Assembly: GCA_003971905.1 (NCBI GenBank)
Contig: RSEE01000075.1
Location: forward strand, 248,001 to 312,000
DNA: 64,000 nucleotides
Direction of reading: 5' to 3'
Origin: Moniliella sp. 'wahieum'
Lineage: Eukaryota
This document shows, piece by piece, positions 33,473-35,528 of this stretch. A program made the position numbers and the translations under genes. The notes under the pieces were generated by a model. That model did not search any database and was not told the origin of the DNA. It saw nothing but the letters and a program-made list of their open reading frames with translations. How positions within the stretch are numbered: position 1 is the stretch's first letter; every line of letters begins with the position of its first letter.

Positions 33473-35528
33473 ATGGTTGCGCCGTACATCCCCCGCTCCT
33501 CGGCGCCTGTCTACCCCGCCGACGCGCACTTCGTCCCCTGCCGCACCGACGGCCATGCGCCCACCGCCGCCGAGCTCATCGCCGCCCACCCGGACCTCGA
33601 CACGCAGGTGTGCGAGAAGCTGCCGGCGGGCGTGCCCATGCCCCGCGTCATCCTCCTCCGCCATGGCGAGACGCCCTGGTCCTTGTCTGGCCAGCACACT
33701 GGCCGCACCAACCTGCGTCTGACCCCGCACGGCGAGCAGCTTGTCGCCCAACTTGGGCCCTCGGTCGTCGGCGACGACCCCCGTCCACAAGACAACGAGA
33801 TGGCCCTCCTGACCCCCCACCATCTGGGGTATGTGTTGTTTCGCCGCGCGGCCGTTCCCAGCGCACGCTCCAGCTCCTGCTGCAGCATTTGCCCGACTCG
33901 GTGCGCAGCAAGATCCCTTTGCCCGAGGTGCGGGACGACGTGCGGGAATGGGACTACGGTCTGTTTGAGGGACGTACCCCGGCCGAGGCACGCGCGTTCC
34001 CAGGCTACGCCCACTGGGACATTTGGCGCGATGGGACTCCCGATGACCCTACCGATCCCAACTTACCAGGCGAGTCGCCGCAGCACATGACGGATCGGAT
34101 CGACCACATGATCCAGCAGATTCGCCTCATCCAGCGTGCTGCTGCCCATGGCTATCTGGCCGATGACCGTGGCATTCGGATCGACGCTACCAAAGGACAT
34201 CGTACCGCCGATATTCTTATTGTCGCTCACGGACACTACAACCGGTACGTTTTTGCGCCTGCTTGCTCTCCTGGGAGGGATGGCTACTGATCTCGGATTG
34301 GATGGGGTGCCTCTCTTACCACAGTTGCTTCATTGCTCGTTGGCTCGACCTTCCGCTGGAGATGGGCCAGCGGTTCGCAGTCGATGCCGGTGCGATCACC
34401 ATTCTTTCCTATGCCCACAAGAACTTTTGTGAGCCGACGATCGGGTCGCTGTTTAGCGCCCAGGACGGCCTTCACCCGCCGGTCAACGAGGTCAACAGTA
34501 GTGAGACCAAGCTCAAGGCCGGCAACGCACCCATTGGTCTGCCTCAAACCTTGGTCAAAGGCACGTTGCGCACTGAGGGGCTGCGGGACGCCGTTGCGCA
34601 TTGCCTTTCCGGCCGCGTCGTTGGTGCCAATCCCGACACGGACAACCCTGGTGAGCGGCAATACCAAGCGCTGGTGCAGGCCGTGCTCGATGCGGGCGAA
34701 AAGCGCCAAGATCGGACGGGCCATGGAACGCTCGCCCTGTTTGCCCCGGCACCCATGAAGTTTGACCTGTCCCACGGGCAGCTTCCCCTGCTCACCACCA
34801 AGCGTGTCTTTTTCCGTGGCGTGGCCGAGGAACTGCTTTGGTTTGTGCATGGCTCGACCGATGCCAATCTGCTCGCCCAACGCGGCGTGCACATTTGGGA
34901 TGGCAATGGCAGCGAAGCGTTTTTGCGCCAGCGGGGCCTGCCCTACCGCCAAGGCGACTTAGGACCGGTCTATGGCTTCCAGTGGCGCCACTTTGGCGCA
35001 CCCTACACCTCGGCCGAGGCAGATTACACCGGCCAAGGTATTGACCAACTGGCCCAGATCGTGGAGACCATCAAGACCAACCCGACCGACCGACGGATCA
35101 TCTTGTCTGCTTGGAATCCGGCGCAGAACGCCCAAATGGCCCTGCCGCCTTGCCACGTCCTGGCGCAATTTTTCGTCTCGCACCCCGACGGCCACGGCGG
35201 CGGCGAACTGAGCTGCCAAATGTACCAGCGCTCGGCCGACTTGGGCCTGGGCGTGCCGTTCAACATTGCTTCGTATGCGCTGCTGACGCACATGCTGGCC
35301 CATGTGACGGGCTTGCGCGCACGCGAACTCACCATTGTCCTCGGCGACGCACACGTGTACCTCAACCACGTCGAGCCGCTCAAGGAACAGCTCAAGCGCG
35401 ACCCCTACCCGTTCCCCACACTCCACTTTGCTCGCCACGTCGAGTCCATGGAGGATTTCAAGACGGAGGACTTTGTCCTGCAGAATTACAAGACCTGGCC
35501 CAAGATCGAGATGGCAATGGCGGTGAAC
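33473..35528 (+). CDS. CDC21: Fusion: SHB17-like histidine phosphatase (N-terminal) plus thymidylate synthase (C-terminal)
   Basis: Phosphatase: [52 protein letters not shown] (intron 34245-34324). [79 protein letters not shown]. One 1-nt frameshift ~33838; the expected stop after MAV appears lost to an indel. Confidence 0.9.

Follow-up and report, generated by a model that had tools for sequence, protein, structure and literature searches.

Thymidylate synthase (TS) is an essential enzyme and the target of fluoropyrimidines. It is an obligate homodimer that works with the cysteine of the PPCH motif and with arginines of both subunits, and its free C-terminus is important. In protists and plants TS is found fused to dihydrofolate reductase (DHFR). 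A fungal precedent is Hal3 of Schizosaccharomyces pombe, which is described as a fusion of phosphopantothenoylcysteine decarboxylase (PPCDC) and TS (PMC6695811), and both parts of this protein are reported to be functional (PMC6695811; PMC9604783). Shb17 of yeast is described as dephosphorylating the sedoheptulose-1,7-bisphosphate made by aldolase and thereby supplying the non-oxidative pentose-phosphate pathway; Table 1 of the same source gives it as a dimer of 2 x 31 kDa (PMC8151747). We analyzed a stretch of 64,000 nucleotides (nt) from Moniliella sp. 'wahieum' (assembly GCA_003971905.1, contig RSEE01000075.1, positions 248,001 to 312,000; the whole stretch is referred to as the window). 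It contains a nuclear gene with two exons, from a fungus of the subphylum Ustilaginomycotina, and the predicted product of ~658 amino acids (aa) consists of a Shb17-like histidine phosphatase at the N-terminus and a TS at the C-terminus. The locus had been described in a note made without database searches (here called the sequence-only reading).

Structure of the fused gene and its two domains

The fused gene is located on the + strand, starts with the ATG at 33473 and reaches the last canonical TS codon, a valine codon, at 35523-35525. Its closest relative is represented by two open reading frames (ORFs), P0005 and P0004, both located on one 5,499-bp contig. The gene is laid out as follows:

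33473..33841, + strand: first part of exon 1 in the ATG frame, an N-terminal extension followed by the beginning of the phosphatase domain with the RHG motif, 123 residues ending in ..HHLGYVLF (from translation, Pfam and alignment with the relative)
33839..33843, + strand: frame break in a TTT run that is one base short of TTTT (from the frames of the window and the relative)
33841..34244, + strand: second part of exon 1 in the -1 frame, SPRGRSQRT..REWDYG..AHGHYN with bases 1 and 2 of an Arg codon, middle of the phosphatase
34245..34324, + strand: intron of 80 nt, GTACGT...CCACAG (from the sequence and the relatives)
34325..34457, + strand: start of exon 2, encoding the final strands of the phosphatase, which align with the C-terminal portion of this domain in fused relatives
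34458..34658, + strand: linker of 67 aa without stop and without Met, one block of which is conserved only with the closest relative
34659..35525, + strand: complete TS domain ending in ..KIEMAMAV (from PF00303, PDB match, motifs and model)
35526..35723, + strand: read-through of 65 codons up to the TGA at 35721-35723

The 80-nt intron proposed in the sequence-only reading has GT..AG ends and interrupts an Arg codon as cg/t. Splicing restores the sequence of the relatives: the spliced window sequence ..AHGHYNR-CFIARWL.. is the same as in relatives without the intron, for example Sympodiomycopsis (..AHGHYNRCFIARWL..). The same intron site is marked in ORFs of relatives taken from raw contigs, where P0007 ends in ..HGHYNR and the similarity of P0005 stops after ..HGHFNR. 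From 34326 on the frame is open throughout, as had been claimed, and contains the C-terminal strands of the phosphatase, the linker and the whole TS domain in a single exon. This stop-free frame comprises 518 codons at 61% G+C, which is far beyond chance. Because the end of the phosphatase, the linker and TS share one stop-free exon, the junction between phosphatase and TS is real and not made by a frameshift.

The linker, which had been estimated at ~60 aa, comprises 67 aa according to its boundaries. It was compared in an alignment of 38 rows, consisting of the composite protein of the window and 37 two-domain relatives, in which the linkers of the other 37 rows are 10-38 aa long. A Met is present in the linker of seven of the 38 rows at positions that are not conserved, and the window has none. 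The next Met of the window after the phosphatase part sits inside the TS fold, beyond the DRTG motif; since the linker contains no Met either, a complete separate TS cannot start at an internal AUG. Ahead of the phosphatase domain the window and the closest relative share an N-terminal extension of 55 aa; unlike the window, the complete relatives of the two-domain alignment begin near their MPR(V/L) motif.

The Pfam profiles matched by the three pieces are His_Phos_1 and Thymidylat_synt, which bears out the assignment as a histidine phosphatase fused to TS. Thymidylat_synt (PF00303) is matched with 358.1 bits (cut-off 24.3; E 3e-107) over positions 2-266 of 266 of the profile, and the top PDB match of the exon-2 product is the TS of Cryptococcus neoformans (2aaz, E 1.4e-118, residues 102-399). 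DHFR_1 was not matched by any of the three window pieces in the Pfam scan. The TS motifs DRTG, DRR, PPCH (as LPPCH), RSxD (as RSAD), FNIASY and GDAHxY are all present. Going by the TS literature, we take the Cys of PPCH to be the catalytic residue and the arginines of DRTG, DRR and RSxD to bind the phosphate of deoxyuridine monophosphate (dUMP). Counting the alignment rows that contain the respective residue, this Cys is conserved in 32 of 33, the Arg of DRTG in 38 of 38, and D, H and Y of GDAHxY in 32 of 32 each.

His_Phos_1 (PF00300, cut-off 21.7 bits) is matched by the first piece over profile positions 1-40 with 31.2 bits, and by the second piece over positions 49-134 with 48.1 bits (E 1.5e-12). 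Branch-1 histidine phosphatases form a phospho-histidine on the histidine of the RHG motif and use a Glu as acid. In the composite protein of the window the core residues are R63, H64, R128, E159 and H253, which presumably have the roles described in the dPGM/Shb17 literature for the Arg-His of RHG, the Arg of SPRxR, the acid Glu and the His of HGH. Among the aligned fused proteins, again in rows with the residue, the Arg of RHG is found in 32/32 and the His nucleophile in 31/32, the second Arg of SPRxR in 32/32, the Glu of REWDYG in 32/34 and both His of HGH in 38/38. The sequence-only reading had called both catalytic sets intact; all the motifs it quoted are present (RHG, EWDYG and HG; LPPCH, RSAD and FNIASY), but the phosphatase is split by a frame break of 1 nt.

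The grouping of the N-terminal domain with Shb17 was confirmed by comparison with solved structures. The middle piece of the window matched YKR043C/Shb17 best (E 2.3e-10), and the next family (Gpm2, 2a6p) followed at 7e-4; for the relative P0007 the values were about 5e-26 for YKR043C/Shb17 and 2.7e-16 for the next family. The closest non-fused proteins among the matches listed are fungal proteins of 246-330 aa, several of which are named sedoheptulose 1,7-bisphosphatase in their source. These similarities place the domain with Shb17 rather than with other histidine-phosphatase families and suggest that it is an ortholog of the fungal Shb17-type sedoheptulose-1,7-bisphosphatase, from which its activity and substrate are predicted.

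Structures were modeled with AlphaFold2. The full-length relative of Tilletiaria anomala, modeled with a 101-row alignment, reached a mean predicted local distance difference test (pLDDT) score of 93.8 and a predicted template modeling score (pTM) of 0.70; both domains have a pLDDT >90 and the blocks of the linker 65-77. Superposed on 2aaz, this model gave a template modeling score (TM) of 0.98 (target-normalized) at 70% identity. In the model of the window's exon-2 product TS is above 90, and linker residues 66-94 and 96-103, which are covered by only two sequences, are below 50. When the full-length Tilletiaria model was compared to the PDB with Foldseek, only TS chains and no match spanning both domains were found among the 50 matches listed, the query-normalized TM of which was at most 0.52.

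Distribution and origin of the fusion

A search with the end of the window's phosphatase plus the linker yielded one match, P0004, which is 79% identical to the window over 385 aa, the junction included. The N-terminal part of P0005 is 75% identical over the aligned 120 residues, which include the extension, and across all parts the identity between the window and this closest relative is 69-79%. The middle phosphatase piece was then compared to longer proteins, which gave 210 matches, the best 120 of which were listed. At least eight proteins contain both PF00300 and PF00303, eight being found among the 120 matches listed, at ranks 2 and 4-10; they include proteins from Tilletiaria anomala (K437DRAFT_278827, 570 aa), Sympodiomycopsis kandeliae (565 aa), Thecaphora frezii (610 aa) and Kalmanozyma brasiliensis (550 aa).

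The phosphatase half of the Sympodiomycopsis protein, searched against proteins of 310-989 aa, gave 44 matches, and His_Phos_1 and Thymidylat_synt occur together in 36 of these. Further species with the fusion are Parajaminaea, Tilletiopsis washingtonensis, Tilletia controversa, Exobasidium rhododendri, Sporisorium reilianum, Testicularia, Pseudozyma flocculosa, Violaceomyces, Melanopsichium and three Malassezia species; cluster look-ups added Malassezia globosa (MGL_2153, 535 aa) and M. obtusa. These species span the Ustilaginomycetes, Exobasidiomycetes and Malasseziomycetes, three of the five classes listed under Ustilaginomycotina; among the matches seen, none of the fused proteins was named from the Moniliellomycetes or Peribolosporomycetes. 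The ORFs P0004, P0009 and P0012 from raw contigs cross the junction independently of eukaryotic gene models.

The exon-2 product was also used for an exhaustive HMMER search against 1.84 billion representatives, and 42 of the 150 matches listed (the top 36 and six long ones) were scanned with Pfam. DHFR and TS were combined in 26 of these, 13 contained TS only, two His_Phos_1 and TS, and one TS with an intein. P0125, the top match of this search, turned out to carry no phosphatase fusion; it has 533 aa and contains a partial extra copy of TS before the full one. In the representative library, P0200 and P0216 are TS genes with inserted intein or LAGLIDADG domains.

In their sources the fused proteins are named "thymidylate synthase", "related to thymidylate synthase" or "hypothetical protein". 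Databases thus contain the architecture, lineage-wide but uncharacterised, without singling it out. A full-text literature search, which largely does not cover subscription journals, found no paper on a phosphatase-TS fusion. The suggestion of the sequence-only reading that this might be a lineage-wide and uncharacterised architecture thus held, both domains being present in 36/44 matches from three classes of Ustilaginomycotina.

Several database entries of the family deviate from this picture in detail. In P0010 (Thecaphora frezii) the TS sequence is interrupted after ..HVEPLK by 48 aa that resemble an unspliced intron, and the models P0312 (Tilletia controversa) and P0330 (Malassezia cuniculi) depart from TS at or before its C-terminus into unrelated sequence. 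P0314, a protein of 517 aa from a 1,887-bp contig, is named as Golovinomyces magnicellulatus, a powdery mildew. Its identity to the phosphatase half of the Sympodiomycopsis protein is 57%, and it ranks amid the Ustilaginomycotina matches; the contig may be a contaminant from a basidiomycete yeast.

To place the phosphatase domain, a quick maximum-likelihood tree was calculated with 66 rows. They comprised 32 fused proteins (those of the 38 with at least 200 residues), P0005 and 33 stand-alone proteins, which were hand-picked from the search matches and are mostly named ones; no outgroup family was part of the tree. A branch with a Shimodaira-Hasegawa-like approximate likelihood ratio test (SH-aLRT) value of 75 separates all 33 fused rows from the remaining ones. 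The fused rows adjoin two stand-alone Agaricomycotina proteins from Astraeus and Tulasnella (joint support 85) and are apart from 29 ascomycete Shb17-like proteins (99). Inside the fused clade the window pairs with P0005 (SH-aLRT 100) on a long branch. The pattern is as expected if a Shb17-like gene was inherited vertically and became fused a single time, in the stem of the Ustilaginomycotina, a scenario to which the tree lends modest support.

Two defects of the assembled copy and the surrounding window

The assembled copy of the fused gene contains two defects. In the first, the Phe codon comprises 33839-33841 (TTT) and the Ser codon would begin at 33841, so that T 33841 is needed twice and no base is spare. 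As assembled, translation from the ATG at 33473 halts at the TGA at 34088-34090, and the phosphatase domain is split over two frames. The closest relative reads ..RYVFSSPRGRSQ.. in a single frame at this site; the first piece of the window aligns to residues 118-237 of P0005 and the second (P0002) to residues 239-377. A short intron at 33839-33843 was ruled out since not a single base is left over between the codons for Phe and Ser. A programmed frameshift was likewise ruled out, since the site lacks a canonical slippery heptamer and the ORF of the closest relative is uninterrupted.

The second defect concerns the end of the gene. The sequence-only reading had given the gene as 33473..35528; an ATG is indeed present at 33473, but 35526-35528 is AAC and not a stop, so that in the assembly TS is not the C-terminal end of the protein. 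The TS of the closest relative ends in ..MKMAV. The terminus M-[A/S]-V is found in 25 of the 37 relatives of the two-domain alignment, and P0004 is the 26th; the remaining 12 are ten shorter ORF fragments ending before the TS C-terminus and two longer annotated models. Every one of the 26 relatives extending to the C-terminus of TS thus ends at M-[A/S]-V. A 3' intron supplying a stop after ..MAV was considered as well, but the GT..AG candidates from 35523 and 35536 to 35601 do not give a terminal Val plus stop. In the read-through segment the G+C content by codon position is 0.52/0.585/0.49, compared to 0.67/0.41/0.78 in the TS domain. The segment is most likely 3' untranslated sequence made readable by a stop missing from the assembly. 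A genuine 65-aa tail on the TS of the window is improbable, because TS is C-terminal in DHFR-TS, in PPCDC-TS and here, which fits the need for a free C-terminus.

A survey of frame breaks, in which 254 stop-to-stop ORFs of at least 110 aa from the window were scanned against Pfam, showed that three other conserved genes switch frame without room for an intron. A CCT/TCP-1 chaperonin subunit (~30113-31625, + strand) matches the Cpn60_TCP1 profile over positions 9-412 and 413-489 in two frames that meet near 31375; at this break (31330-31420) one stray base lies between the Pro and Ile codons of ..RQLP / ILADNAGLD... This break probably reflects an indel of the assembly, here in an essential gene. 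In a DRG-type GTPase (MMR_HSR1, MMR_HSR1_Xtn and TGS; ~5385-6470, + strand) the TGS profile is matched over positions 1-35 and 27-60 in two frames, which overlap near 6170-6182 (region 6130-6220) in an A4 run after ..KEFK. A nicotinate phosphoribosyltransferase (~13695-15446, - strand) matches NAPRTase_N over positions 1-32 and 29-89 in two frames near 15060, and its break (15020-15110) lies in a C5 run between ..WFTNRSP and MKFTQKAIE..; the break in the phosphatase lies in a T3 run. In addition, matches to Nab2-type CCCH zinc fingers at 17608-18598 (+ strand) fall on two overlapping ORFs in different frames, which may be a further frame break.

Because three other genes of the window are broken alike, neither site is damaged in the relative and no codon periodicity is seen in the read-through, both defects of the fused gene are probably indel errors of the assembly and the copy is probably intact in the organism. 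Since the assembly of the window contains gene-breaking indel errors, gene models require frameshift-aware annotation here.

Upstream of the fused gene the 8-mer GTGACGCG occurs twice, at 33294-33301 and 33308-33315 (+ strand), 14 nt apart and ~160-180 nt before the ATG, and a CACGTG is present near 33185. The GTGACGCG pair was considered as a cell-cycle box and rejected as such, as the 8-mer is not enriched: it occurs five times in the window compared to 3.4 expected, and 24 of 100 shuffles reached five. The pair may be a candidate promoter element. The neighboring genes identified with Pfam in the 64-kb window have no evident link to the fused gene:

1559-3182, - strand: proline dehydrogenase
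about 20164-20676, - strand: MFS transporter
27339-29071, + strand: ELO fatty-acid elongase
36364-37842, + strand: VHS/GAT protein
42079-43659, + strand: bZIP factor
45458-46837, + strand: SUR7/PalI
47666-48217, - strand: Sec61-gamma
53054-53989, + strand: RhoGEF
56383-57387, - strand: Med21
57418-58155, + strand: epoxide hydrolase N-terminus
62078-62677, - strand: amino-acid kinase
62937-63860, - strand: ribosomal L17

Possible function and comparison with known TS fusions

We consider it likely that the gene encodes a bifunctional homodimer with two independent active sites, that the two enzymes were fused for co-expression and that the two defects are assembly indels. The TS halves of two chains would pair as the usual obligate dimer and methylate dUMP to thymidine monophosphate (dTMP) via the PPCH cysteine. 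Each chain would bear an independent phosphatase module on a flexible linker, which would hydrolyze a sugar bisphosphate by way of a phospho-histidine on the RHG His with the Glu of REWDYG as acid; its product, sedoheptulose-7-phosphate, would feed the synthesis of ribose-5-phosphate. The partner enzyme would be N-terminal, plausibly since TS needs a free C-terminus, and the fusion would have arisen once, ahead of the divergence of the Ustilaginomycotina classes. The sequence-only reading had suggested that the fusion may couple ribose-phosphate supply, or the dephosphorylation of nucleotides or sugar phosphates, to dTMP synthesis. Nothing in our analysis shows such a coupling, and channeling as in DHFR-TS is unlikely because sedoheptulose-7-phosphate is several steps away from dUMP. 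Since the reactions of phosphatase and TS are not consecutive, the benefit of the fusion would rather be the equimolar co-expression and co-regulation of two nucleotide-supply enzymes.

Several points weigh against this explanation. The substrate of the phosphatase is predicted by homology alone, the monophyly of the fused clade is modestly supported (SH-aLRT 75 in a quick search and a tree free of outgroups), and the retention of the fusion across the whole subphylum could reflect a functional link beyond co-expression. Such a link would exist if the phosphatase domain were functionally tied to TS, either by acting on a phosphate ester of the nucleotide or folate pathway (dUMP, dTMP or another one) or by sensing sugar phosphates and thereby modulating TS. 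This would fit the conservation of the catalytic residues of both domains wherever the fusion was kept in the three classes, the branching of the fused phosphatase domains apart from the stand-alone proteins, and the gain of a conserved linker block and an N-terminal extension in the window's clade; the pTM of 0.70 of the full-length Tilletiaria model leaves a fixed arrangement of the domains possible. We nevertheless regard it as rather unlikely, as the domain resembles what vertical inheritance of a Shb17-like protein in basidiomycetes would give and has Shb17 as its best solved match, and as the linkers are variable, weakly conserved, short (10-38 aa) and modeled with low confidence. Moreover, all four named Ustilaginomycotina entries among the 120 matches listed are fused (4/4), so the fused gene may be the sole Shb17-like gene and keep that job. 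That the fusion is an ancient physical connection of dTMP synthesis to the sugar-phosphate (riboneogenesis) status of the cell, with a phosphatase that regulates TS or has been re-tasked to an ester of the nucleotide or folate pathway, appears doubtful to a similar degree. If true, the fused gene would be the sole source of both activities across the subphylum, including Malassezia and the smuts, and a lineage-specific form of enzyme.

A further point against the preferred explanation of a bifunctional enzyme with an intact gene is that the stop-loss site is no obvious homopolymer and that the assembled sequence does show both defects. The frame break and the stop loss could be real, in which case the copy would be a pseudogene or its TS would have an abnormal tail. 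It would then be a decaying or altered copy, namely a phosphatase-dead allele with TS untranslated from the ATG at 33473, or a TS with a 65-aa tail, and the functional gene would be located elsewhere. This is improbable in our view: no further stop or frame break is present in the gene, the identity to the closest relative is 69-79% throughout with intact catalytic motifs, the read-through segment looks non-coding, and the window contains three more conserved genes that are broken alike, the CCT subunit included. Hardly any weight can be given to the idea that phosphatase and TS are two adjacent, separately expressed genes that only seem fused. Some database models of the fusion family are imperfect (Thecaphora, Tilletia and M. 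cuniculi), and no support for separate genes was found. The junction, in contrast, lies within one exon without stop and without Met, a linker Met occurs in only 7/38 rows and at no conserved position, raw-contig ORFs cross the junction in several lineages, and both domains are present in 36/44 matches.

The bifunctional protein favored here resembles the Ustilaginomycotina fusion family in domain order, catalytic motifs and the position of TS at the extreme C-terminus. Named members of the family, such as the 'related to thymidylate synthase' of Sporisorium reilianum (554 aa) and the 'Thymidylate synthase' of Kalmanozyma brasiliensis (550 aa), are 51-56% identical to the phosphatase part (P0002) and ~60% to the exon-2 product. 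The 55-aa N-terminal extension and the long linker are restricted to the window and its closest relative, and the window copy is frame-broken and stopless as assembled. Compared to Shb17 of Saccharomyces cerevisiae (YKR043C; PDB 3f3k, 3lg2, 3ll4 and 3oi7) the N-terminal domain has the same motifs RHG, SPRxR, REW(D/E)YG, W(D/N)IWRDG and HGH; Shb17 is a stand-alone protein of ~31 kDa, whereas the window domain is fused and its activity and substrate are predicted. Monofunctional fungal TS enzymes (C. neoformans 2aaz, yeast Cdc21) lack a phosphatase domain; the window TS aligns end to end with 2aaz, the chain of which comprises 317 aa.

DHFR, which the sequence-only reading had named as the familiar fusion partner of TS, is not the sole such partner, since S. 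pombe Hal3 is a PPCDC-TS. DHFR-TS is likewise one polypeptide with TS at the C-terminus and the partner enzyme at the N-terminus; its partner catalyzes a reaction consecutive with that of TS, whereas the partner in the window is His_Phos_1. In S. pombe Hal3, as in the window, a fungal TS is located behind a metabolically non-adjacent enzyme, but there the partner is a phosphopantothenoylcysteine decarboxylase core, and the fusion arose independently in another lineage (Schizosaccharomyces). The subphylum as a whole, to which commensals of human skin (Malassezia) and the smuts of crops belong, appears to produce TS exclusively as the C-terminal portion of a protein with two enzymes, and the fusion offers a testable link of the "Rosetta-stone" kind from the Shb17 branch of the pentose-phosphate pathway to the synthesis of DNA precursors. 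The phosphatase-TS protein joins DHFR-TS and PPCDC-TS as a third type of TS fusion, and TS comes last in all three, which fits the idea that TS tolerates only N-terminal additions.

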